Position numbers and translations under genes: made by a program
In this document: piece by piece, positions 303 to 63,062 of the stretch
How positions within the stretch are numbered: position 1 is the first letter of the stretch
Layout of the letters: each line of letters begins with the position of its first letter
Source: Octopus vulgaris
Taxonomy: Eukaryota
Assembly (NCBI GenBank): GCA_951406725.2
Contig: OX597815.1
Coordinates: 120,776,001-120,840,000, forward strand
Reading direction: 5' to 3'
Length of the DNA stretch: 64,000 bases
Notes under the pieces: model-generated
Told to the model about the DNA's origin: nothing
The model's database searches: none
Seen by the model: the letters and a program-made list of their open reading frames with translations, nothing else

Positions 303-1580
303 CAGTAGTATACATTTGAAAAACGAATAGAAATGGCTTTTCTGATAATTTTTCCACTTTAATCATTGGATGTTTATAAGTATACACCTTTTGTAAACTT
401 ATAAAAACCATTTCTAATCATTTTTTCAAATATAGAGATATGACAGAAGTAAATTGACACCCTTATAATCATTAAAATTTATTAAAATTTGAATTTATGC
501 ATTCAAATTATTTATTAGTTGTTATAATGTGAATATTTAATATCTAGTAGACATGCCCTTTGCATTTTTTAATGCAAAGACCTTATTGGACATGTTACTG
601 ATCAGATGACATATATTCCCTTACAGAATTTCTTGCCAAGTTTCATGTAGTAATCTCAGAAGATCTGGCTTTGAAGATGCTTTCTTGTTCTTTTTATGAA
701 GTGCCCTGCCCATCATATCCCAGAGGTGTTCAATAGGGTTCATATCTGGGGACTGGCTTGGCCATGAAAGCTTTTTAATGCTATCCTCATCCAACAAATC
801 TTAGGTCATTTTAGCCGTGTGACAAGGAGCCTCATCTTCCATCAATAAAGAGTTTTCTTTAATCATTTCACCACTGGAGAAGATTGGAAGGAGTTCTTTC
901 TTCACACTCCACTAGCTCTGATCAACCATTGCTCCAAATTGCTCCCCATACCATCACAGTATAGCTGCCATGTTTCATTGTTGGCTGCAATCTTATCACT
1001 TCAAATTTTTTATCACAGTCTCCAGACCCACACTCGACCACTATCAGGAAATACAGCAAATCTGGACTCATCAGAAAATATGACAGTGTCCCAAAATGCT
1101 AGTGGCCTCTCTACCATCTCACTGGCCCAACCTTTTCTCCGTTTGAAGTCGGCAAGTCGAAGAAGTGGCTTCCTTCTCGCTACTCTGCCATAGTTGCCAA
1201 GTTTGTGGAGATACCTGACAGCTGTTCTGGGACTGACATCAACTTGTTCTGCTATATCAGAGGCCTAGCAATGAGGATTATCCTCCATACTTCTCTTAAC
1301 AAAGAGAAGGGTCCTCTCAGAAGGCCCTGGTTGATCTGGATGAGGTGATGTGGACTCTTTCCCCTCTCTGGTGAATTGCACAATCACTCTATCAACTGTA
1401 AAAAGCAGGATCCCAAGGTTTACTGCGACTTTACTCTGACTATATCCACCTTCAGAATGATCCACAATACGGCCTGTTTGAAATTCAGACAGTTCGAGGT
1501 TTTTTTTTTTATGGCATGATTAAACAGTCACATATAGAACCTGAAACATAAAAGTGTCAATTAATAAAAAATATAAACCT
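303..1580 (-). mobile_element. Degenerate Tc1-type DNA transposon (DD34E transposase pseudogene, about 1517 to 537)
   Basis: Minus strand: N-terminal [21 protein letters not shown], then [40 protein letters not shown] (34 residues between the second D and E), and C-terminal NAKGMSTRY* ending at 537. One terminus TA|CAGTAG at 301-308. Stops and frameshifts present. Confidence 0.9.
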
Positions 1581-9664: not shown

Positions 9665-10253
9665 ACCCATGGCCTATGCCAGAGGTGTAACCAGTCCACT
9701 TATGCGTACCTTTCCTTCAGTGGACACTAAACTCTGCTTGTGAAGACCTGTTGAGGCAAGTGAAATTGAAATCAAATCAAATTCGCAAATTTGATGACTG
9801 GCACCTGTGCCAGTGGAGTGCTAAGAGCACCATCCGAGCTTGATCGCTGCCAGAGCAGCTGACTGGCTTCCGTGCCGGTGGCATGTAAAAAGCACCATTC
9901 AAGCGTGATCGTTACCAGTGTCGCCTTACTGGCACTTGTGCTGGTGGCATGTGAAAAACATTCAAGCGAGGTCTTTGCCAGTGCCGCTGGACTGGCTCCT
10001 GTGCAGGTGGCACGTAAAAAACATCACTTGAGCATGGCTGTTGCCAGTTCCGCCTGACCGGCCCTTGTGCCGGTGGCACATAAAAACACCCACTACACTC
10101 TCAGAGTGGTTGGCATTAGGAAGGACATCCAGCTGTAGAAACTCTGCCAGATCATATTGGAGCTTGGTGCAGCCATCTGGTTTGCCAGTCCTCAGTCAAA
10201 TCGTCCAACCCATGCTAGCATGGAAAGCAGACGTTAAACGATGATGATGATGA
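9665..10253 (+). mobile_element. 5'-truncated RTE LINE 3' UTR with internal tandem units and (GAT)n tail
   Basis: Reverse complement of the sequence following the RTE ORF end at about 44732-45330; ends ggttggcattaggaagg..tgctagcatggaaagcagacgttaaacgatgatgatg. Confidence 0.75.
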
Positions 10254-16610: not shown

Positions 16611-18313
16611 TTTTTGTTTGGCATCCTTTCTGTCTCGGGAGACAATGGAGTTGCGCATTTTTTTTTTTTTTTTTTTTTTTCTAGGTCTAGTCCGGCTGTT
16701 ATATTTTATTTCCTGTTACATTTCTTGCTGTGGCTGTGTAGTCCTATCCTGGACAAACACTCCCTCTGGCAGGTACTGCAAATGTAGCGAAGACTGTTCC
16801 TGGCTGGTTGTAGTACCATGGTCTCTTGTTTATGTCTCTTCCTTTCTTTCCATTTCTCCTCTCTCTTTCTGTCACTCCTCTGTATACCCTCTTTTACTGT
16901 ACGTCGCCATTCTCCACGGTTGCCGGCGACTGCCTCCCAACCGCTAATGTTGATGTTGCAGGCCTTCATATCCCTTTTGCAAACATCCTTGTAACGTAAG
17001 ATCGGTCTACCCACAGACCTAGTACCCCTAGCAAGCTCTCTGTAGAGTATGTCCTTGGGGATTCTGCCATCTTTCATATGGCTAACATGCCCAAGCCATC
17101 TCATACGTCTTTGTGTGAGGAGTGCAAACATGCTTGGTATTCCTGCTTGCCTGAGGACATCTTTGTTGGGGATATGATTCTGCCATTTGATGTGGAGGAT
17201 TTTTCGGAGGCAGCGCAGGTGAAAGATGTTTAGGCGACGCTCTTGGCGTGTGTATAGCGTCCAGGTCTCGCTTCCATACAGTAGAGTGCTGAGTACACAT
17301 GCCTGGTAGATCTTCATTTTTGTGGTCTTGGTCAGCTTATTGTTGTCCCAATCCCGTTTGGAGAGTTGGGCCATCGCAGCAGCTGCCTTGCCAATGCGTA
17401 TATTGAGCTCAGCGTCAAGGGATAGGTTGAAGGTGACGGTAGAGCCCAGATAGGTAAACTTCTCCACCTCTTGTAATCTGTGGTCTCCAATATGTATGTT
17501 TGGGATGTCCGATGTAGCCTGGCCCATGATGTTGGTCTTCTTAAGGCTGATAGCTAAGCCAAAGTCGTTACATGCTTGCTCAAAACAGTTAATGAGCCTT
17601 TGGAGGGCTTCTTCTGTGTGTGTTACCAGAGCGGCATCATCAGCAAATAACATCTCCTTGATCAGGACGTTTCTGATTTTGGTCTTGGCACGCAGGCGCG
17701 AGAGATTGAACAGTTTCCCGTCACTTCTACTGTGCAGAAACACTCCATCATCTGATGTCTGAAAGGCATGTGACAGCAAGAGTGAGAAGAAGATGCCAAA
17801 CAATGTAGGAGCGAGGACACACAGCCTTGCTTTACCCCGTTTTTTATTTGGAAGGCGGCTGATGTTGAACCATTGTGCTGTATGGTGCCTTGCATGTCAT
17901 CATGGAAAGACTTGATGATCCTCAGCAGCTTTGGTGGACATCCGATTTTTTGGAGCAGGAGGAAGAGGCCTGTTCTGCTTACCGAGTCAAAAGCCTTTGT
18001 TAGATCAATGAAGGCCATATATAATGGCATTTTCTGCTCTCTGGACTTCTCCTGAAGTTGGCGTATGGAGAATATCATATCGATAGTTGATCTGCTTCTT
18101 CTAAAGCCACACTGCAATTCCGGATAGATTCGAGAAGCAAGTAGTTGTAGCCTGGCCAGGATAACGCGGGCAAAGGTCTTTCCAACAGTGCTTAGAAGGG
18201 ATATACCACGGTAATTGTTACAATCACCACGGTCACCTTTGTTTTTGTAGAGCGTAATGATGTTGGCATCCCGCATATCCTGAGGGACTGTACCCTCTTC
18301 CCAGCTGTGGGAA
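16611..18313 (-). mobile_element. Young 5'-truncated RTE/BovB-like LINE (reverse transcriptase)
   Basis: ORFs 17662-18276 and 16706-17803: NYRGISLLS, QCGFR, FIDLTKAFDSV, GVKQGC, MLFADD, FTYLGS, C-terminal CSTC..H...C; single frameshift near 17818; 12-bp TSD TATATACTGTGT at 16599-16610 and 18314-18325. Confidence 0.93.
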
Positions 18314-18349
18314 TATATACTGTGTAATTTACAGAATATACAATATACA

Positions 18350-18810
18350 TTTATTGCTGTATGTGAGACATGGTGTCTGAGGAAAAGTGAAATGGCAATT
18401 TTGAGAAGGACCGAGAGAACAATGGTGAGAGCAGTGTATGATGTGAAACTATTGGATAAAAGGAAGGCTGAGGACTTGATGGGGATGCTGGGGTTGGGGG
18501 AATCAGAGGAACAGCTGGCAAGGGTGAATGGAGTTCAGTGGTAAGGACATGTGTTGAGGGGGATGAGGATCATGTTCTGAGGAGAATGCTTGAGTTTAAA
18601 GTGAATGAACCGTGAAAGCAAGGTTGACCAAAGAAAACGTGGAGGGGTCAGGTGGAGGAGGAGATTGCGAGGATTGGCTTGAGGTTGAAGGACACCCAAA
18701 ATGGGGCAAGCTTGGCGTGATGGTGTGAGAGCAGTTGCTGTAAGGGTGAGGTAAATCCGGCCACCCCTGTTAATGGGGACAAACCCAGACTTAAAATATT
18801 GGACATCAAT
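18350..18810 (+). mobile_element. Degenerate RTE-type LINE 3' fragment (different family)
   Basis: Reads LLY..ETWCLRKSEMAILRRTERTMVRAVYDVKLLDKR..QW*GHVLR, the post-RT region of RTE elements. Confidence 0.7.
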
Positions 18811-28951: not shown

Positions 28952-29996
28952 CACTCACTCACACACTCACACACACACATACATACATGTATGTTTATGT
29001 GTGTGTACATTTGTGTGTTTCTCCTTCACTACTACTAGTCAATGGGTGTTGGCGTGTTTATGTCCTCGTGATTTAGCAGTTTAGCAAAAGCAACTGGTAG
29101 AATAAGTACCTGGCTTCAAAAGAAATGCTGGAGATGATTCATTTAACTAACATTCATCAAAGTGATGTCCCAGCATGGCCACAATCTAATGACTGAAACA
29201 AGTATAAGATAAAATGATAAAGATATCTTTACTAATATTTTACTTTCTCTTTCATCATCATCATCATTTAACATCTGTTTTCCATGCTAGCATGGGTTGG
29301 ACAGTTCGACCAGTATCTGGGAAGCCAAGAGGCTGCACTGTTTCTACAGCTGGATACCCTTCCTAATGCCAACCACTCCGTGAGTGTAGTGGGTGCTTTT
29401 TACATGCCACCGGCACAGAGGCCAGAGAAGGCTGGCAACGGCCATGATTGGTTGGTGCTTTTTACATGCCACCTGCATGGAAGCAAGTCAAGGCAGTGCT
29501 GGCATCGGCCATGTTGGGATGGTGCTTTTTACGTGCCACTGACATAAAGTTAAATTTCATTTGAGATTAAACACATCATAAAACTGTCTTTGAAAGACTT
29601 GACACTTCCAAATCTGTCCACAAAAAATGTTTAAGGAATTTCATCCTGACTAATACCAAAATCCTCATCATTTCACACTAAAGAAATAATATTTTTTTTT
29701 CCTTAAGGTTCCCTTCCTACCTAAAGATGCCAAGATTTCTCTACATTAAGGATTATATAGGGTAATGAACTAAAACGTAGCCCAGGTTTTGTAGTATAGT
29801 GTAAATACAGAAATACATGAAAAAGCACCCAGTCTTTCATTTGCAGGTGTCATTGCATTGTTTCAACCATTTGTAACTGGCGAACAAAGATGGTGCATTA
29901 GTTGACTACTTGCTATGTTATCCTCACTGCATCCTCACCACATTAGTTGACTGTAAGACTGCATTGAGTGAACATCTCTAGCCCTTTTCTGAAAGA

Positions 29997-34911: not shown

Positions 34912-36448
34912 CATCATCATCATCATTGTTTAACGTCCGTTTTTCCATTCTAGCATGGGTTGGATGGTTTGACCGGTGTCTGGGAAGCTAGGAGGCTGTA
35001 CCAAGCTCCAGTCTGATCTGGTAGTGTTTCTACAGTTGGATGCCCTTCCTAAACGCCAACCACTCCGTGAATGTAGTGGGTGCTTTTTACATGCCTCTGG
35101 CACAGGGGCCAGAGGAGGCTGGTAACATCCACAATTAGTTGGTGCTTTTTATGTGCTGCCGGCACGGAAGCCAGTCAAGGTGGCACTGGCATCTGCCATG
35201 TTTTGATGGTGCTTTTTACATGCCACCGGCATGGGTATCAAAACTACAATTCCATTTGATTTTTATTTTGACTCAATAGGTCTCCTCAAGCACAGCAGGT
35301 TGCCCTACAATCCAAGCTAAGCACAGCAGGTTGCCCTACAATCCAAGGTACTTTTGAATGGGCCAGGGCTGGTTATGTGAAACTGGTGTAGGATACAGCT
35401 GTGAACTCATTTTATTTGCCGGGTCGTCACAGTCACAGCATATCTCCAGAGGTCTCAGTCTTTTGTCATTGCCTCTGTGAGGCCCAACGTTCAAAGATCA
35501 TCCTTGACCACTTCATCCCATGTCTTCCTGGGTTCTACCCTTCAACTGATTCCTTCAACAGTTTTGGAGTGGCACTTCTTCACACATCTCTCCTCATCCA
35601 TCTGTAGTACATGACCATACCAGTGAAAATGTTTCTCTTGCATGCCACATCCGATGCTTCTTATGTCCAATATTTCTCTCAGGGCACTTACACTCTGTCA
35701 TGTGTGCACACTGACATTACACATACAGTGGATCATGCTAGCTTCATTCCTTTCAAGCCTACACATGTCTTCCACACTCATGGCCCATGTTTCACTACCG
35801 TGAAGCATGGCAGTTCGCACACATGCATCATACAATTTACCTTTCAGTTTGAGTGAGAGGTCCTTTGTCACCAGTAGGGGTAGAAGCTTTCTAAACTTTG
35901 CCCAAGCTATTCTAGTGGTAACACTCTCTGAGCATCCACCCCCACTACTAACTTGGTCACCTAGGTAGAGGAAGCTATCAACTACTTCTAGTTTCTCTCC
36001 CTGGAGTGTGATGGAATTTGTTTTCTGAGCATCCGTGGTGTCTATTGCCCCTATGCATCTGCTGCACATGAAAGCTATCTTCTTGGTTAATCTTCCTTTC
36101 ATGTTGCTGCACCTCTTATGTGTCCATAGCTTACACTGGGTACATCTTATGGAATTTCTATCTACACCTTTACTACAGATTGAGCAGAGGTTGTGTGATG
36201 GGTTCACCTTCCTACTTACAAGAACTTTGCAACCTGTCTTGAATTCTTCTGTTATTGCCTGGAGGACTATGATGAATAAAAGGCTGAACCTTGGTGGACC
36301 CCTACTTCTACCCGGAAATCTTCACTATACTCATTGCTAATCCTAACCTTACTAACGTCATCTCTGTACACAGCCTGTACTGCTCTTATTAAACATTCGT
36401 CAATCCCCAGTTTCCACATCGCTCACCAATAAGGGATCGGAGGACCCT
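34912..36448 (-). mobile_element. Degenerate RTE LINE (PHD-RT family)
   Basis: ORF 35698-36207: CSICSKGVDRNSIRCTQCKLWTHKRC..FMCSRC..VVDSFLYLGD..LYDACVRTAMLHGSETW; 3' UTR and (CAT)n tail at 34912. Confidence 0.85.
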
Positions 36449-36895
36449 ATATGCATATATATATATGTAGGCGGTTGAAAAGGAACACACGAATTGATAT
36501 GTATAAAGAAAATAAGTCAAGGAAGAAAATGATAAAATTATTTTAGCATTTTCTACCTAGTCTTATTTTCCTTATATAAGCTGTCTTCTTGGTTAATTTT
36601 CCTTTGATGTTGCTGCAACTCTTATGTGTCCATAGCTTACACTGGGTACATCTTATAGAGTTTCTACCTACGCCTCTACTACAGATCTTATATATAAACG
36701 AATAAAATATATATAAGCATATATACATACATATATGTACATACTGGCATTTATATGTACATATATATATATATGCATATATGGGTACAGGACATCACAA
36801 AACGTAAACAACATGAAATAAGAAATCATAAAATCTGAAATACGAAATACATATATGTGTGTGTGTGTGTATTATATATATGTATATATATAATT

Positions 36896-43505: not shown

Positions 43506-43543
<38 letters not shown>

Positions 43544-43885
43544 CAACAATTGAGGGTAAAATTAATTAATTATTAATCAATTTCACCAAGTATTCAGTAT
43601 GTAAAGGGACCATTTTAGGCGAATTCAAAATATTACATTATATATAAGGGCTTAGTAAAATAAATTACTTTGCCACATACTGAACTCATTAGAAATAGCA
43701 GCTAAAGAAATTTCTTTAGCTATTTCTAATACTTAAAGAAGATCTCTCTCAGATAGTGTTTGCTCAAACCAACTCACAAAGGTATGGGGGAAAAAACATT
43801 AGTTCGAGCGGAATTCTAGAGGTGATAAGAAGCCAAAAGGGTATGCTCCCACTTTCAGTGTTCCCAAATCCGAATCAAGGAGTTC

Positions 43886-43937
43886 TGAGCTGACGAAAGA
43901 AATGTCGATTTGACTAATCTAGAAACGTACGTTCTCA
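43886..43937 (+). ncRNA. Type I minimal hammerhead ribozyme motif, copy 1
   Basis: tgag-CTGACGA-aagaaatgtcgatttgactaatcta-GAAAC-gtac-GTT-ctca: stem I tgag/ctca, stem II aga..gtc(gattt)gac..tct, stem III within palindromic ACGTACGT. Confidence 0.7.
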
Positions 43938-44442
43938 AATAACCTTTGCACTTGATTTTTTAATGTTTTTTCCCCCATACCTTTGTGAGTTGGTTTGAGC
44001 AAACACTATCTGAGAGAGATCTTCTTTAAGTATTAGAAATAGCTAAAGAAATTTCTTTAGCTGCTATTTCTAATGAGTTCAGTATGTGGCAAAGTAATTT
44101 ATTTTACTAAGCCCTTATATATAATGTAATATTTTGAATTCGCCTAAAATGGTCCCTTTACATACTGAATACTTGGTGAAATTGATTAATAATTAATTAA
44201 TTTTACCCTCAATTGTTGAAATTATAATTCATTTCTCTCTGTTTAATGCTTTGGTTTTCACCGATAAAACATAGTGTTTGTCAATTTTAACCCACGCTGG
44301 TGGAAAGGGGAGAGCAGAAATTCTTCGCTTGCATATTTTGAATTTGATAACACTTTTAGTTTGAGCGGAATTCTAGAGGTGATAAGAAGCCAAAAGGGTA
44401 TGCTCCCACTTTCAGTGTTCCCAAATCCGAATCAAGGAGTTC

Positions 44443-44494
44443 TGAGCTGACGAAAGAAATGTCGATTTGACTAATCTAGAAACGTACGTTCTCA
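44443..44494 (+). ncRNA. Type I minimal hammerhead ribozyme motif, copy 2
   Basis: Identical to 43886-43937, 557 bp downstream. Confidence 0.7.
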
Positions 44495-44672
44495 AATAAC
44501 CTTTGCACTTGATTTTTTAATGTTTTTTCCCCCATACCTTTGTGAGTTGGTTTGAGCAAACACTATCTGAGAGAGATCTTCTTTAAGTATTAGAAATAGC
44601 TAAAGAAATTTCTTTAGCTGCTATTTCTAATGAGTTCAGTATGTGGCAAAGTAATTTATTTTACTAAGCCCT

Positions 44673-44705
<33 letters not shown>

Positions 44706-44731
44706 CATACATGTGTGTGTGTGTGTATCTT

Positions 44732-47160
44732 CATCATCATCGTTTAACATCCGCTTTCCATGCTGGCATGGGTTGGACGGTTTGACTGGGGACTGGTGAG
44801 CCAGATGGCTGCACCAGGCTCGCTCCAATATAATCTGGCAGAGTTTCTACAGCTAGATGCCCTTCCTAATGCCAACCACTCCAAGAGTGTAGTGGGTGCT
44901 TTTACGTGCCTCTGGCACAAGGGCCAGTCAGGCAGTGTTGGCAACGGCCCCGCTCAGATGGTGATTTTATGTGTCACCTGCACAGGAGCCAGTCCAACGG
45001 CACTGGCAACACCCTCTCTTGAATGTTGTTTTTCACGTACTATCGGCACAAGTGCCAGTAAGGCGACACTGGTAACGATCACGGTCAAATGGTGCTTTTT
45101 ACATGCCACTGTCATGGGGTCTAGTCAGTGGCCCTAGAAATGATCACATTCTGCTGGTGCTCTTAGTGCTCCACTAGCACAAATGCCAGTCATGCAGTGC
45201 TGTCATCGAACTTGATTTCGATTTCACTTGACTCAAAAGGTTTTCGCAAGCAGAGTTTAGTGTCCAATGAAAGAAAGGTGCGCTAAAGTGGGCTGGTTAC
45301 ACCACTGGCATAGGCCACAGGTTATGGTCTCACTTGGCTTGCCAGGTTTTTCAAGCACAGCATATTTTCAAAGGTCTTGGTCACTAGTCATTGTCTCAGT
45401 GAGGCCTAATGTTCGAAAGTCGTGCTTCACCACTGCATCCCAGGTCTTCCTGGGTCTACTTCTTCTACAGTTTCCCTCAACCGCTAGAGTGCGACACTTT
45501 TTCTCACAGCTATACTTATCCATTCGCACCACATCACCATACCAGTGCAGTCGTCTCTCTTGCACACCACATCTGATGCTTCTTAGGTCCAACCTTTCTC
45601 TGAAGACACTTACACTCTGTCAAATATGTACACTGACATTACAGATCCAGCAGAGCATGCTGGCTTCATTCCTTGCAAGCTTACGCATATCCTCGGCAGT
45701 CACAGCCCATGTTTCACTGCCATGTAGCATGGCTGTTCGCACACATGCATCATACAGTCTACCTTTTACTCTGAGCAAGAGTTTGTCATTAGCAGAGGTA
45801 GGAACTCTCTGAACTTTTCTAGCAGCTACACTTTCAGAGCACCCATGCCTGCTACTGACTTGGTCACCTAGGTAATGGAAGCTATCAACTTCTAGCTTTT
45901 CTCCCTGGAATGTGGCAGAAGTTGTTTTCTGCACATTTTCAGTGTTTATTGCTCCTGAGCATCTTCCATATACAAAAACTATCTTCCTAGTTAGCCTTCC
46001 TTTGATATTGTTGCACCTCTTATGTGTCCATAGCTTACACCAGGTACATCTTATAGAGTTTCTACCTATGCCTCTACTACAGATCGAGCAGGGCCATCTA
46101 CCTGAAGGAATTTGTGGTTTGTCTGCCTTCTTACTTTGGCTTTTGATAGATTGACTCCAAGGCCCTTCAAGTTTAGACCTTGCTTCCACACCTGAAACTT
46201 CTCTAGTTCTGGTTGTGACTCAGCTATTAGAGCAAGGTCATCAGCATAGAGAAGCTCCCAGAGGCATCCTGTCTTGAAATCCTCTGTTATTGCCTGGAGG
46301 ATTATGATGAATAAGAGGGGGTTGAGGACTGATCCTTGGTGAACCCTCCTGCCTGGAATTCTTCACTATACTTGTTGCCCAACCCTCACCTTTATGACAG
46401 AATCCCTGTACATTGCTTATACAGCTCTCACTAACCACTCATCTATCTCTAGTTTCCACATTGACCACCAGATAAGTGATTGGGGTACCCTGTCAAAGGC
46501 TTTCTCCATGTCAACAAAAGCCAGGTACAGAGGTTTATCTTTGGCTAGGTATTTCTCCTGCAGCTGTCTTACCAGAAATATAGCATCAGTGATGCTTTTC
46601 CCTGGCATGAACCCGAACCGCATCTCATCTAAACTAACTCTCTCCCTAATTAGTTGGGCTATGACTCTCTCTGTGACCTTCATTATCTGATCCAACAACT
46701 TGATACCTCTGTAATTATTTGTATCTAAAGCATCACCTTTACCTTTGTAACAGTTGACTATAGTGCTGGTACACCAGTCATTGGGTATGACCCCTTCATG
46801 TATCACCTGGTTAACTATATGGGTGACTAGGCTATAGCCGACACTGCCAGATATTTTGAGCATCTCTGCAGTGATTCCTGATGGGCCAGGAGCTTTCCCT
46901 GTCTTCATACTCTTAACTGCTTTTTCTACCAAGGTACTGTCAATTCGGATAGCTGGTCCCTCTGTTGGGTCAACATTCAGCAGACTCTCTTTCTCCCATT
47001 GATTCTCTTTATTGAGCAACCTTTCATATTGGTGTCCCCAAACCTGTCTCTTTGCAGCCTCGTTTAGTGCAAGTGAGTCATCATCCATGTGGACACATTT
47101 CTCTCGTACGACATCATGATTCTCTCTCACACCCTGTCTTGCAACATGAAATACTTCAAG
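44732..47160 (-). mobile_element. RTE LINE (PHD-RT family), 5'-truncated and frameshifted
   Basis: ORFs 46417-47241, 45620-46189 and 45368-45592: GKAPGPSG, YKGKGD..NYRGIKLL, FGFMPG, AFVDMEKAFDRV, LLYADDL, FHYLGD, LHWYGDV; 3' UTR tandem units; (CAT)n tail. Confidence 0.92.
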
Positions 47161-47204
<44 letters not shown>

Positions 47205-50169
47205 GTATGTATGTATGTATGTATGTATATGTATATATCAAGGTGGCAAGCTGACAGAAACATTAGCATGCCGGGCAAAATGCTAAGCGGCATTTCATGT
47301 CTGTACATTCTGAGTTCAAATTCCACCAAGCTCAACTTTGCCTTTCGTCCTTTCAGGGCTGATCAATTAAGTACCAGTTGCATACTGTGGTTGATCTAAT
47401 CGACTGGCCCCCTCCCCCAAAATTTCTGGCCTTGTGCCTAGAGTAGAAAAAAAAATATATATATCATCATCATCATCGTCATCATCATCTTCATCATTAT
47501 TTTATCATCCAATTTTCCATGATTGCATGGAACAGGCAGAGTTTACTGAGGCAGATTTTCTGTGGCCTGATGCCCTTTCCTGTTGCCAATCCTTATCTGT
47601 TTCCTCATAGTCAGACATGTTTTCACAAAATATTGGAAATGAATGACATTCATTTACAACAACAATACAGAATGAAGCCATGCATAGCCACACTCATGCA
47701 TACACACACACACATGCACACGCATGCACACACACACACACACACACATGCATATATACAATAGGCTTCTATCAGTTTCCTTCTTGCATTGGCAATAGGA
47801 GTGAATATTAGTTGTAGCGACAGCAGCAATTCTAATGGCTGTAGTAGTTGTGGTTGTTTTAGTTTAATATCAGTAGGGTTCATTGTAATTCTCTCTTCTC
47901 TCTCTCTCTCCCTAACCCTCCCCCTCTCCCTCTCTCTCCATCTCACAGGGATTTAGAATTGGCTGGTATTTGGTTAAGAAGTTTGTTTCTCTGTTGATGC
48001 GTTGTTGTATTGTGTAATCACTGAATTGATGTAGAGGGAAAATGGTATAATTTAGTTGTCTAACCGCAGCATATGTCCATATGTTCACTGAGTCTTATTT
48101 GTCTGCATTTCAGTATTTTCATTTGTGATCTATGAAAAGTCATGCACTGTCTTAAAGACCCTCTAGTTTGTCATATATAATGATCTCCATATCCTGAGAA
48201 TGTAATTACATACCCTAAATAAATCTATAAGATTTATGTATATGACTGATCCAATTTTCTGTCAGATAATGTTAATTTTTTAAAAATGCAAAAGTTGGAT
48301 ATTTTCCATCATGCTGGTGCTCCAGCAAGGCCACAGTTTTGAGGGTGAAACCAGTACTAAAAGGAAAAAAATGGAAAAGAAGAATGTAAAACATTTCCTA
48401 TGTTGGTAAATTAGTAAATCCAAATAGTTGCTTTGATATAATAGTTAGAACATCTACCATATTTACAGATAATGTGGGCTTGAGTCCCAATGGCAACCTT
48501 TGACTTTTTATATAAGCACAGGTAATGCAAATGGAAGCATTGACAAGTGGTTGAGAAGTTTGCTTCCCAATCATGTGGCTCCAATTTTAATTCCACTATT
48601 TTGGCACCTTGGATAAATGACTTCACCTCTGGCCCTGGGTCCATCAAAGACTTGTGAGTGGATTTGGAAATCAAGTGATGATAATGGTGATGATGATGAT
48701 GATAATGATGAGGATATATGTATATGTATATTTGTCTGGGTGCATGTATGTGCTTGTGTGTCTCCCTTGCATTCACTGGTTTGTTTACAAACTCTGCCTT
48801 AAACAGTGTTGCTTGCTTCCAGCTTCCTGCATAAACATGCCTGGGCTGTTAGCTGTTCCATGAATTGGGAGATTATTACCTCCCTAGGAAACAAACAGGG
48901 AGAGAAAAGTTAGCAACAGGAAAAGCATCTGGGCAAAGCAAAATTCTGCCCTACTGTAGTATTGTTTGACCCATTCAGACATGGAAAAGTATACATTAAA
49001 ATGATGATGATGAGGAGGAGGAGGAGAACACTGATGCTCCTGCTGCTGCTGCTGAGGATGCTGATGATGATGATGATGATGACGACAACGAGGAAACTAG
49101 TGTTTATATATTTATATTTATTGTTGATCATCTCTGTTCAAAGATGTTCCTGTGGTGACCATCTAGTCTATGATTTTCTGGGGGTTTTTTTCCATCTAGT
49201 GTGTCCGTTCCTTATTTAGAGTATGTACCCTGAAGAGAACATGGCAACTGTTTCTAGCAAGTTGGATGATCATGTACAGGTTTCTTCATTGTCTCATTAT
49301 GTCTATGTATGCGTTCATACCAAGATGCATTTTCAGTACGCCTCCGTAATATCTTGCTACATTTTCACCAAGCAATCACTTTTGGAATTCTGTTTCTTGT
49401 AGTCAGTATATCCATTTCCACAGTTTTTGATTAAATAAATAAAATATGTATTCTCTATTCAATCCCAGATTAATTTCCCAAAATTTAATATAAATTCATC
49501 ACAGTTTCAAATAATCACATTTCTCCAATTGCTGAGGTTTTTTGGTTATTTTGTTCTACGTATGTTTTGTTGGGTTTATGTGTATGTGTGTGTGTGTGTG
49601 TGTGTGCACGTGTGCATGTGTTTCCTTTTCATTTACTGCCCTCCATTGTCCAGTGTTAAAGTAATCTTTTCTTCATTACATTTCCCAGTATTTGCCTTGT
49701 TTCAAATGTTTTGCATTCCATGTACACATGCTATCTCACTTCCTTCCATCCCACACATCCATTAATATTGTATTTCAGTCACCTGATATACCTGCTGATA
49801 TTTTCTTCATCCATATACACCTTCCTATCTTTAATCCAGTCAGTTGATTTTGAAACAAGCTCTGAAGCAACTCATCAACACATCACTATTTCTTTCTTTT
49901 ATTTGCTGACTTGTTCTATAGGTTTATTTATTACTACACTGTTTAATTTCACACTAATGCTGCTATGTTGTGCAGCGTTTCAAATCAGCTGACACTTCTC
50001 AAACATAAGCTAACACCTTGATAAACAGCTTAAGAGAAATTGATATATAGAATAACATGTTAGATTGCTACTAAAACGTCTCACCACAGCTAGATATTAT
50101 CTTCCCACACCAGGCTGAGTTTTAATGAATATCATTGCATAGTTCTGTCTGTTAGGTAACATTACAGTA

Positions 50170-52120: not shown

Positions 52121-54362
52121 TCATCATCATCATCATTGTTGTTTAACGTCTGCTTTCCATGCTGGCATGGGTTGGACGGTTTAACTGAGGGCTGGCAAGC
52201 CAGAAGGCTGCACCAGGCTCCAATCTGATCTGGCAATGTTTCTACAGCTGGATGCCCTTCTTAACGCCAACCCTCCGAGAGTGTAGTGGGTGCTTTTTAC
52301 GTGCCACCAGCACGAGAGCTAGTCAGGCAGTACTGGCATCGACCATGCCTGAATGATGCTTTTTACATGCCACCGGCATGGAAGCCAGTCAGGTGGCACT
52401 GGCAATAGCCGGCACTGGCATCAACCATGCTCAAATGGCACATTTTACATGCCACCAGCATGGGACCACTCAGATGGCACTGGCATCGGCCATGCTTGAA
52501 TGGTGCTTTTTATATGCCACCAGCACGGATGCCAATCAGGCAGTACTGTCATCGGCCACGACAATGACATCACTTGACTCAACATGTCTTCGCAAGTGCA
52601 GTTTATTGCCCAATGATTGAAGAGTGCTCTTAAATGGGCTGGTTATGCTGCACTGGTTATGCTGGTTATGCTGTTTTCTGCACATTTTCAGTGTTTATTG
52701 CCCCTGAGCATTTGTCACACAAAAAGCTACCTTCCCAGTTAGTCTTCCTTTGATATTGTTGCACCTTTTATGTGTCCATAGCTTACACCAAGTACATCTT
52801 ACAGAGTTTCTACTTACACCTTTTCAACAGATCAAGCAGGGCTATCTACCTGAAGGGATTTGTGGTTTGTCTGCCTTCCTACTTATTAAGACTGGTTTTT
52901 GCTATATCGACTCTAAGGCCCTTTAAGTTTAGACCTTGCTTCTACACCTGAAACTTCTCCTCTAGTTCTGGTAGTGACTCAGCTATTAGAGCAAGGTCAT
53001 CAGCATAGAGAAGCTCCCAGAGGCATCCTGTCTTGAATTCCTCTGTTATTGCCTGGAGGACTATGATGAATAAGAGGGGGTTGAGGACTGATCCTTGGTG
53101 AACCCCCATTCCTACCTGGAATTCTTCACTATACTTGTTGCCCAACCCTCACCTTACTGACAGAATCCCTGTACATGGCTTATACAGCTCTCACTAACCA
53201 CTCATCTATCTCTAGTTTACACATTGACCACCAGATAAGGGATCAGGAGACCCTATCAAAGGTTTTCTCCATGTCAATGAAGGCCAGGTACAGAGGTTTA
53301 TCTTTGGTTAGGTATTTCTCCTGCAGCTGTCTTACCAGAAATATAGCATCAGTGATGCTTTTCCCTGGCACAAACCCAAAATGCATCTCATCTAAACTAA
53401 CTCTCTCCCTAATTAGTTGGGCTATGACCCTCTCTGTGACTTTCATTACCTGATCCAACAACTTGATACCTCTGTAATTATTCATATCCAATGCATCTTC
53501 TTTACAGTCATACCCAATGACTGCTACACCAATCATTGGGTATGACTCCTTCATGTATCACCTGATTCACTATACAGGTGACAAGACTATATCCGACACT
53601 GCCAGATATTTTGAGCACCCCTGCGGTGATTCTTGATGGGCCGGGGGCTTTCCCTGTCTTTATACTTTTAAATGCTTTGTCTACCAAGGTACTGTCAATC
53701 CAGATAGCTGGTCCCTCTGTTGAGTAGACATTCAGCAGACTCTCTTTCTCCCTTTCATTCTCTTCATTTAGCAACCTTTCATAGTAGCATCTCCAGGTCT
53801 CTCTCTTTGCAGCCTCATTAAATGCAAGTGAGCCATCATCCGTGCAGACATATTTTTCTCCTATGACATAATGATTCTGTCTCTCACACACTGTTCTGCG
53901 ACACAAAATACTTTAAGCCTTTGGTCCTCACAAATTTTTTCTTATCAGCTTCCCCTTTGGCTAAGTAAACCTGTCTCCTAGCTTCCCTTCTGTCAAACTG
54001 ATACAATTCCTTACTACTACCAGTTCCTTTTCCCTAATGGCCCTGTCAACTAAATTGTTCCATCACAACATTACTTTGGGTGAAGCAGGGACTTTACACC
54101 ATCCACAGATCTGGTCAGTAACGCTCAACATGTTGTGCCGTAGGAACCTCCAGTTGTCTTCCACATCATGTGATGCTATATCCCCCTCTATTTCGTCAAA
54201 AGCTTTGAGTAATATGTCTCTAAATTTCTGTCCTTTTACAGGATCCTTAAGCTTTCAGACTCTTCTTCTGGTCGTCTTCTGGGCATCCATTTAGTCCTGA
54301 TCCTGAAGTCGTTAACTACTAATCTATGTTGTGGGGTGCATTCTTCACCTGGGAAGGTTTTA
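52121..54362 (-). mobile_element. RTE LINE (PHD-RT family) with internal deletion
   Basis: ORFs 52942-53145 (GVHQGSVLNPLLF..LLYADDL), 53243-53554 and 53508-53906; endonuclease-end remnant FPGEECTPQHRLVV; closely similar to 45920-47160. Confidence 0.9.
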
Positions 54363-57614: not shown

Positions 57615-58147
57615 TTGAGAATATGTTAACCTCATGAAGGGATGGTTGCATCCAGGAAAATATTGGTTCAATGCCTAGTATGGCTTTTTTTTATGCTGGT
57701 GAAATTGTGCTCATGTCACATAAATGCAAATTTAATGTACAAATTTGTAATTAAATTATTGAGTATTAATTGAAACAGCTGTAAGACGTGAAGATGACCA
57801 ATTTGTTAATAATAAATAAATACGTACCACCGGTATGGAAGCCAGTTGAGCGGACCTGGCATCAACCACATTTGGATGGTGCTTTTTATATGCACTGGCA
57901 TGGGAGCCAGTCTGGGGGTACTGGCATCAGCCACGTTTGGCTGATGCCTTCTACATGTCATCAGCACGGGAGCCAGTCAGGTGGACCTGGCACCAACCAT
58001 GTTCAGATGGTGATTTTTATGTACCACAGGCACGGAAGCCAGTCAAGGCTTGATATTGATTTTAATTGATTCAACAGGTTTTCTCAAGCATATCATATTG
58101 CCCAATGCATCAGGTGTATTCTTAACAGGACTGGACATTCATACATA

Positions 58148-60377: not shown

Positions 60378-61745
60378 CAAGGAAAGCTTGTCAGGACAGG
60401 AGACAGTTTGTTGCCAAGTGGTGAAATGATGAAGGGAGTTCAACCCCAATCTGGCTATAAATACCTGGGAATACTTGAGGCAGATGGAATTAAACACAAT
60501 GACATGAAGGAAAGACAAAAAGAGAGTACCTGTGGTGAGTGAGAAAAATATTGGCTTCAAAACTGAATGCCAGAAACATAATTTTGGTAATAAACTCACA
60601 CATAGTCGCAGTAGTTCATTATGGTGCTGGAATGCTGAAGTGGACAAAGGAGGAACCAAAGGAGATGGACAGGAAGTCAAGAAAACTCCTAATGATGCAT
60701 GGAGCCCATCATCTACATGCACTCATTGACCATCTATATATGAAGAGAGCAAATGGAGGAAGAGGACTGATAAGTGTGAAAGACTGCATACTTATTGAAC
60801 TTGAGACCTTAATGAGATGCCTAGCCCAAAGTAAGGAAATCTTGCTAATATCAGGTAGAAATGATGGAGTATTGAAAGCAGAGAAAAAAGGAAGTACAAA
60901 AAGGACATGAAGAAAAATTATGCAACAAAGGACTTCACGATAAAATTGGTGGGATTGGCTAAAGAAAGGAACACTAAAAAACGAGACTGAGAGCATTATA
61001 CTGGCTGCGCATGACCAAGCGTTGGCTATGAACTGGAGGGTTAACCCTAGGAATGAACAAATGTCTTCGCTGTGCTGCATCTGTAATAGGGTGGATGAAA
61101 CCATTGCCCATATCATGAACAAATGCCCTAGACTTACCCAAGACTACTGCAAGTTGTGGCAACATGATCAGGTAGCAAAGTGCTACAATGGAAACTATCT
61201 GAAAAGTAGGGGCTAGAGAGAGGAAAGACGTGGTATGAGCACAAACCACAGAGAGTGGAGGAGTCAGAGGCTAGCAAAATCCTCTGGGATTACCCAATCC
61301 AAATAGATCAGGTGCTAAAGCATAACAGACTGAACCTAGTGGTAGTGGACAAAGTGCACTATGCGTGCTATATAGTTGATATTGCATGCTCTTTTGATCC
61401 ATGAATAGTCAAGAAGGAAGGTGAGAAGATAGATAAATACAACCTTCGTAAGTATAAAATAGCCTGGCTTTGGAAAATTAAGAATTTGAAGATAGTGCCA
61501 ATTATTGTTGTGTCCTGGGGAACAGTATCTGAAGGCATCAAGAGGAATATAAGGGAAATTGGAATAGAATGCCCAGTAGAAATGTTACTAAAGGTTTGCC
61601 TCCTTGACACAGCCAGAATAATCAGGAAAGTATTAGATAGCTGAAAAGAACAGATAGCATGTGACCGTAAGCTTTAGGTAGCAAACCCATTATGCATGCA
61701 AAACTGCAGGAGTTTCAACAAAAAATGTACTAAAAAGAAAAGCAA
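60378..61745 (+). mobile_element. Dong/R4-like RLE retrotransposon remnant 2
   Basis: YKYLGILEAD, RKILASKLNARN..LYMKRANGGRGL, ETESIILAAHDQAL, CCHC knuckle CCIC..ETIAHIMNKC, ILWDYPIQID..YIVDIAC; (TAA)n tail from 61746. Confidence 0.88.
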
Positions 61746-62648: not shown

Positions 62649-63062
62649 TGGACTAAACTAAACGAAAAGAAATAGACAAAGAAAATCCCAGCAATGGCTG
62701 AGAAGCTCAGGACTCAAAGCAGAAACAGAGGGATTTTTAATTGCAGCCAAGACCAAAGCCTCCCACCAGAAATTACCAAAACATGTAATGAAAAGAAATA
62801 TTACAAGTAACTGCAGAATATGTGGAGATGGACAAGAAACAATAAATCATATTATCTCTAGCTGCCCAGTCCTGGCTAAGAAGGAATATATTCACAGACA
62901 TGACAGAGTTGGAACTTACATACATTGGAAGCTATGCCAACATTATGGAATAACAACAGAAAAAAGATGGTATAGGCACACCACAGCACATACCCAAGGC
63001 ACACAGAGCTGTGCTCGGTAGTGAAGTGAAAGCACGCTATAAAAATAAAAATAAAACTACTG
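62648..63062 (+). mobile_element. Dong/R4-like RLE retrotransposon remnant 4, internally deleted
   Basis: SQQWLRSSGLKAETEGFLIAA, CRICGDGQETINHIISSC (CCHC), YIHRHDRVGTYIHW; (TAA)n on both sides. Confidence 0.88.

Follow-up and report, generated by a model that had tools for sequence, protein, structure and literature searches.

In Octopus vulgaris contig OX597815.1, the 64,000-nt stretch of DNA analysed here (the window) contains a repeat-rich insertion at 43536–44682, which raises the question of what kind of mobile element produced it and by what route it was copied. A preliminary description had read it as a recent insertion of the Penelope-like element (PLE) type with tandem hammerhead ribozymes, and that reading was borne out by the near-identity of its copies and by a layout published for PLEs. 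We consider that it very probably represents a non-autonomous family mobilised by PLEs; for the whole chain of dimer cleavage, ligation into a circle and copying in trans by a PLE reverse transcriptase (RT), we judge the chances to be about even.

In the forward part of the insertion a non-coding unit of 557 nt was present in 1.6 tandem copies, and an inverted, 5′-truncated copy preceded this part. As previously claimed for a 266-bp arm lying before the units, this copy (43536–43801, minus strand, 266 nt, without a hammerhead) was an exact reverse complement of 43961–44226 with 0 mismatches, the two arms being 159 nt apart. The direct repeat, at an offset of 557, joined 43799–44125 to 44356–44682 with 326 of 327 positions identical, the sole mismatch between the forward copies being 43805 C against 44362 T. 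The offset and the single mismatch given earlier stood, but the start given for the repeat (43801) was 2 nt late (43799), because a 3-nt microhomology at the inversion joint (43799–43801) fitted the arm and the forward copy alike. The first forward unit (557 nt, plus strand), complete in this permutation, occupied 43799–44355, and the second, partial unit (327 nt, plus strand), a pseudo-LTR-like terminal repeat, occupied 44356–44682. No second copy of the unit was found elsewhere in the 64-kb window. Together the insertion had the partial tandem with an adjacent inverted 5′-truncated copy that is seen in PLE-type insertions.

(TA)n tracts were found on both sides of the insertion (43509–43539 on the left, 44673–44709 on the right), as expected from the earlier placement of the element in (TA)n, and the target remnants proper were 43509–43535 and 44683–44709. 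Each outer end lay at a TATAAT-like word of the unit, at 44682 (=44125) on the right and at 44226 on the left; since these words merged with the (TA)n tract, a target duplication was unreadable. The two alternative 3′ ends of the unit (44125=44682 and 44226) were 101 nt apart and delimited a “tail” (44126–44226, plus strand); they were probably two reverse-transcription start sites. Both 3′ ends recurred in other copies; the tail that two RT start sites give in PLEs usually measures 30–40 nt, against the 101 nt found here. The outer end of the inverted arm was the second 3′ end of the family, and its inner end lay 27 nt past the predicted cleavage site. In multimer coordinates the arm ran from −397 to −132 and the forward part from −2 to +881, so that a template consisting of one molecule would have to be circular or span 2.3 units.

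The unit had a GC content of 0.327 and its longest stop-to-stop frames were of about 60 aa. Three unit frames of 57–60 aa were scanned and gave no Pfam match, and a 59-aa frame ending at the hammerhead had no longer homolog at E≤1 among 12 candidates, which is weak evidence. The earlier statement that the element holds no ORF was upheld in this way. An RT/GIY-YIG ORF between the hammerheads, which lay 557 nt apart, was absent. The insertion is not an autonomous PLE; its absence of coding capacity and its GC content below 50% are those of non-LTR retrozymes.

The window was AT-rich and microsatellite-dense, with LINE-type RT fragments. Broken LINE-type RT frames (Pfam RVT_1), which we take to be RTE-like, were located at 16709–18534, 46069–47262 and 52945–53557, all on the minus strand. 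PHD-finger matches (E 9e-6 to 4e-5) were located at 35701–36321, 36546–36794 and 45623–46219 (minus strand), and the position of the last, just downstream of RT frames, suggests a LINE family in which a PHD-like finger follows the RT. Two zf-RVT matches on the plus strand (60944–61213 and 62662–63018) were ends of another LINE family, and a fragment of a Tc1/mariner-type transposase HTH was found at 1016–1264 (minus strand). A dispersed family of 63–67-bp tandem units occurred at 9795–10090, 29392–29539, 52291–52558 and 57825–58045, and a stretch that looked similar by eye followed the insertion at about 44870–45200. Among 150 of the 248 filtered frames of at least 55 aa (window 1–64000), no host-gene Pfam domain was found, so the window is intergenic or within a deep intron; no GIY-YIG match was found among 150 of the 248 window frames.

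Each unit contained a type I hammerhead core with an open stem I and the cleavage triplet GUU. Motif 1 was located at 43876–43948 (plus strand; core 43890–43933, predicted cut after 43933) and motif 2, identical to it, at 44433–44505 (plus strand; core 44447–44490, predicted cut after 44490), with a predicted 557-nt monomer between the cleavage sites (43934–44490, plus strand). Stem I had 4 bp and was extended past internal loops by 3 and 5 bp. Stem II had 3+3 bp around an internal loop, with A.A opposite each other at its base (10.1/11.1), and stem III was an 8-nt palindrome with a self-duplex energy of −9.8 kcal/mol. The core and the three helices were in register in each unit, which confirmed the hammerhead with palindromic stem III noted before. 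Two successive units with a complete type I hammerhead, the second unit being partial, are found in non-LTR retrozymes; the palindromic 15.2–16.2 with loop 3, the long helix II and the short helix I are those of PLE minimal hammerheads. A hammerhead search had been proposed in the preliminary description; Rfam did not return the motif: at E≤5 there were 29 matches, all below the gathering score, and 0 of the 29 was a hammerhead. The hammerhead call rested on anatomy and conservation for this reason.

A conserved G10.1–C11.1 pair is typical of PLE minimal hammerheads (PMC4209133); in the unit A.A was found instead, and no variants at 10.1/11.1 were present among those listed in the contig survey. 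Reservations had been raised about the GUU triplet and about the mismatch opening stem II. In File S2 of PMC8557442, counted by hand with the repeated Penelope-13_HM row taken once, GUU occurred in 10 of 25 Hydra-clade families and a 10.1/11.1 mismatch in 15 of 25 (14 U.U, 1 U.C, 0 A.A). GUU and a mismatch at the stem II base were clade-typical on this count and the reservation about them is weakened, although A.A itself was present in 0 of the 25 families. The unit's hammerhead core did not turn up in a motif search of the supplement to PMC8557442. A pattern search with the variant core gave 0 loci in viral contigs and 15 loci in metagenome contigs. The latter were rejected as chance matches: none was like the unit by blastn, 1 of the 15 passed a loose hammerhead rule, with a 2-bp stem II, and none was convincingly complete.

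Folding predicted the active hammerhead for dimers only, in agreement with the dimer-type hammerhead proposed earlier. In the monomer, the active fold (−6.7 kcal/mol) competed with a minimum free energy of −11.0 kcal/mol and had a probability of about 1e-4. The double hammerhead, at −28.0 kcal/mol against a dimer optimum of −30.5 kcal/mol, lay 6 kcal/mol below two monomers. In three dimer transcripts starting after the arm, an inter-copy stem III was formed in 988, 994 and 688 per 1,000 sampled folds, and all three helices of one hybrid core were present together in 46, 51 and 34 per 1,000. For a transcript including the inverted arm, the inter-copy stem III had a probability of 0 and +123 kcal/mol was required to force it, so that upstream read-through of the locus would give a 266-bp duplex, likely with no cleavage. 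On this model the insertion copy at 43536–44682 may be a dead end.

The predicted monomer was highly self-paired, like those of non-LTR retrozymes. Its folding z was −5.6 in linear form (0 of 100 shuffles as good) and −4.9 as a circle, and that of the opposite strand (linear) was −4.8. A perfect 22-nt palindrome (44041–44062) lay at the tip of a long hairpin, and in the family both partners of one of its G-C pairs varied toward A-U (44605/44612, in the second unit). Two U6 runs lay just 3′ of each hammerhead (43956–43971 and 44513–44528), and the inverted arm ended in the first U6 run after the hammerhead.

The unit was present in 20 of the 24 public sequencing runs listed, 14 of them with at least half of its words; the runs with the unit spanned 10 studies and 4 organism labels, and the best word share was 0.74. 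None of the listed runs with the unit was recorded as RNA, X13 being at most a presumed RNA run. Contigs of four runs (X1, X2, X7 and X13) were aligned to 44126–44682 at 80% likeness, giving 1,666, 3,532, 1,132 and 224 matching contigs, respectively, which carry no strand, RNA-end or circularity information and whose summed depth is not a copy number. The unit was covered in 30 of 30 bins in all four runs, and end-to-start closure of the 557-nt unit was listed in X1, X2 and X7 and not in X13. (TA)n was met after 44226 in three contigs of X7 and after 44219 in two contigs of X13; from their sequence, these are taken as other insertions using the second 3′ end. An opposite-strand joint (44586/44629) in one contig of X2 was likely another inverted insertion of the family. 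Judged from the contigs, the 557-nt unit is an abundant multicopy family and not a one-off, with the unit as its monomer, as in non-LTR retrozymes.

Where the second copy has T at 44362, a C within a CpG was found in the first copy and, for X1, X2 and X7, in the great majority of the contig depth. We infer that the T of the second copy was a later deamination, CpG to TpG, away from the family majority base, and the lone mismatch being of this kind, the insertion reads as very young. At about 20 of the 40 listed substitution sites the window base was in the minority in X1, which places the 43536–44682 copy in a subfamily that is minor or specific to a species.

The insertion's own inversion joint was absent among the joints listed in the four runs. 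This absence, together with arms that are 100% identical and the trouble that such structures give to assemblies (PMC8557442), could point to an artefact, of assembly or of chimeric reads, built on one copy of the repeat. Such an artefact is most improbable. The unit closes in three of the four runs, and the end of the arm coincides with a site at which (TA)n follows in other copies as well. A microhomology and a non-palindromic spacer of 159 nt mark the joint, and the single mismatch is a CpG to TpG change off the family majority base.

Forty listed substitution sites, out of 54, were mapped on the circular fold of the window copy. Sixteen were unpaired, 13 kept the pair by a one-sided change and 5 broke a pair, while the remaining 6 made up 3 pairs whose two variants again form a pair. 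The null redistributed these changes at random among positions carrying the same base and ignored kinship among copies; against it, pair-breaking sites were depleted (5 observed, 12.8 expected, P 0.0009) and both-side pair changes were enriched (3 observed, 1.05 expected, P 0.013), the two changes of each “compensatory” pair being counted without regard to linkage on one molecule. Pair-preserving variants connected the middle of the unit with the part after the hammerhead. The ribozyme (44444–44494) contained 0 of the 40 listed sites (P 0.02), all the indels listed within the hammerhead motif affected loop II, and in a variant whose stem III was 2 bases longer (3 contigs, X1) the palindrome persisted. 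A core varying freely among copies had been named beforehand as evidence against a ribozyme; in this multicopy family it proved to be conserved. On the modelled fold, these data showed that family variation spares the ribozyme core and mostly preserves a strong fold, indicating selection on RNA structure.

This variation also bears on a further alternative, an element moving as DNA (a MITE, a foldback or a Helitron-like satellite) with a chance look-alike of a hammerhead, which would account for the long inverted repeat, the TA target and the missing Rfam hammerhead match. We give it very little credence: the inverted repeat does not make up the termini, and its two ends are unequal by the length of the tail, the variation respects G-U pairs, with pairing kept by a one-sided change at 13 of the 40 listed sites, and all core bases stand in register with three helices.

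The distribution of contigs along the unit raises another alternative, a truncated or internally deleted autonomous PLE with long non-coding ends, of which the contigs would be 3′ stubs and the closed 557-nt unit a rare by-product. Summed contig depth peaked shortly before the two 3′ ends in all four runs and dipped at 44240–44277 and 44335–44391 in 4 of 4 runs, where the ORF of a parent could branch off, and most PLE copies are 5′-truncated stubs (PMC8557442). A junction with a coding parent may have escaped notice, since 24 of 257 loose ends and 32 of 6,594 contig pieces, each of at most 119 nt, were shown. However, the loose ends at 44270, 44338, 44381 and 44617 appeared by eye to be colinear diverged subfamilies, and at most 3% of contigs continued into unlike sequence (0 in X1, X2 and X7; 0.03 in X13). 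The middle of the unit has its own subfamilies and was bridged by diverged contigs, e.g. 44214–44312 with 11 other letters and 44327–44418 with 14; it was tied by pair-preserving variants to the part after the hammerhead, and no ORF remnant was detected in the unit. With the whole unit behaving as a diverged, closed family, an origin as PLE stubs becomes less likely, and we rate it as improbable.

For the favoured reading, a non-autonomous family mobilised by PLEs, the following life cycle is proposed. A tandem copy would be transcribed, likely by Pol II read-through: a scan with the consensus Pol III boxes gave no B-box match, and U6 runs lie just after the ribozyme. A Pol III origin was rejected on the same two grounds. 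According to the folding model, two hammerheads would pair through the 8-nt palindromic stem III, cut after GUU and release the 557-nt monomer, which, by analogy with other retrozymes, a host RtcB-type ligase would close. The GIY-YIG endonuclease/RT of an autonomous PLE, the presumed enzyme, would nick (TA)n on both strands, with cDNA starting internally at two points that are separated by 101 nt and each lie next to a TATAAT-like word. The cDNA from 44682 would reach 884 nt, exceeding one round of the unit and crossing two cleavage sites; another cDNA from 44226, of 266 nt and on the opposite strand, would be joined to it via the 3-nt microhomology, in an order that we presume. Comparable steps have been reported for an anole PLE protein, which nicks AT-rich DNA on both strands and with which two internal RNA start sites define the tail (PMC11167929), and pLTRs suffice for mobilisation in trans (PMC3846280).

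The passage of the forward copy through two intact cleavage sites is also what would be left if the template for the same non-autonomous family were read-through RNA of tandem loci that stayed linear and uncleaved, with no circle needed. The hammerhead would then be a module, weak or assisted by protein, that was retained from the pLTR of the parent, in keeping with A.A in place of G10.1–C11.1 and with a fully active fold that was a minority state in the sampled dimers. Precedents exist: in the anole PLE, the one PLE reconstituted in vitro, cleavage was dispensable and protein-assisted, insertion having no need of hammerhead cleavage and no RNA reads ending at the cut site (PMC11167929), and of 9 retrozyme dimers predicted in Xenopus, 1 cleaved and 8 did not (bioRxiv 10.64898/2026.07.22.740005). 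Copying from linear transcripts is a possibility that we take seriously, at well below even chances. The spared core and a stem III kept palindromic fit selection for an active dimer instead, and a 1.6-unit locus could not template a longer product, so that something must regenerate the tandems, a deduction that follows the circle argument of PMC4209133.

For the driver of the PLE-mobilised family, our best guess is the Hydra clade, on account of the (TA)n target and the hammerhead style. The unit combines (TA)n with a canonical-type hammerhead near its 3′ end, as Hydra-clade families do, and (TA)n was the target in 26 of 27 Hydra families (File S1, PMC8557442). The target is not specific, for Naiads and some others also use (TA)n, Naiads being without canonical hammerheads (PMC8557442). 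Hydra-1_Obim, a Hydra family of Octopus bimaculoides (PMC8557442), was rejected as the parent: by eye its 3′ end was unlike the unit, its hammerhead differed, and an 11-nt word shared near its 5′ end was estimated to be at chance level. A living pair of retrozyme and driver, in which an A.A dimeric hammerhead yields an abundant circle that a Hydra-clade PLE copies in trans, is put forward tentatively, as a doubtful proposition for now.

Were it true, 43536–44682 would be the footprint of a circle copied from two start sites, the hypothetical circle-template model of retrozyme/PLE transposition would become directly testable, and a new natural hammerhead core variant would be added. The unit is a convenient small substrate for tests of cleavage, circle formation and mobilisation in trans, with the full, near-perfect PLE signature and with both predicted RT start sites readable, and the A.A core variant, if it cleaves, would widen the descriptors used in hammerhead searches. 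None of this amounts to a new type of system. Dimer-cleaving PLE hammerhead variants have reportedly been described by Lunse et al., and the A.A variant may already be in print there.

The suggestion that this was an undescribed RNA-based mobile system was overstated, as retrozymes, a circle-and-PLE cycle and a pLTR origin are in print (PMC7229834; 10.64898/2026.07.22.740005). PLE mobilisation of retrozyme circles is a published hypothesis (PMC7229834), with support so far from co-occurrence and from pLTR phylogeny in frogs (PMC7229834; 10.64898/2026.07.22.740005). The latter paper derives non-LTR retrozymes from PLE pLTRs, with other organisms outside its scope, and its supplements may list related families. 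For the family of the 557-nt unit itself, no description was found in the open literature on octopus Penelope hammerheads and cephalopod retrozymes (Repbase/Dfam and subscription journals lying outside this search), nor in the available parts of PMC6765202 and PMC6962438.

By criteria at the level of sequence, the insertion can be assigned to the non-LTR retrozymes (PMC7229834; 10.64898/2026.07.22.740005), with which it shares tandem non-coding units with one type I hammerhead each, a low GC (33%), a highly self-paired monomer, a dimer-type stem III and a proposed mobilisation by PLEs. The unit of 557 nt exceeds the 150–450 bp given in PMC7229834 and falls within the 51–972 bp of 10.64898/2026.07.22.740005. 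It differs in its PLE-style hammerhead, in which stem II starts from A.A, and in that this copy, whose cleavage and circles are predicted, was inserted at a dispersed site and shows the complete PLE signature of inverted arm and tail. With endonuclease-bearing PLEs (PMC8557442, PMC3846280, PMC11167929) it has in common the partial tandem, the adjacent inverted 5′-truncated copy, a tail from two 3′ ends, a microhomology joint, an AT-rich target and a hammerhead in the terminal repeat; unlike them it is without an RT/GIY-YIG ORF, and its tail is 101 nt against 30–40.

Hydra-clade PLEs (PMC8557442) resemble it in the (TA)n target, in GUU and unpaired 10.1/11.1 being common among them, in a near-palindromic stem III of 3–4 bp and in a hammerhead near the 3′ end. 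Their 10.1/11.1 mismatch is U.U or U.C and, in the 25 families of that source, never A.A, and six Hydra-clade 3′ ends compared by eye had no visible sequence likeness to the unit. The clade is defined by protein motifs (RWK, DKT, CxCX5C; no endonuclease CCHH), whereas the unit has no protein. The non-autonomous Chlamys elements, e.g. MRC1 (PMC8557442), are likewise short non-coding PLE derivatives with pLTRs and head-to-tail copies; they differ in being green-algal and in belonging to a clade mostly without hammerheads. Set beside these systems, the insertion stands out by its 557-nt unit, by a tail of 101 nt, by A.A as a variant of the hammerhead core and by the complete PLE signature borne by a unit without coding content.
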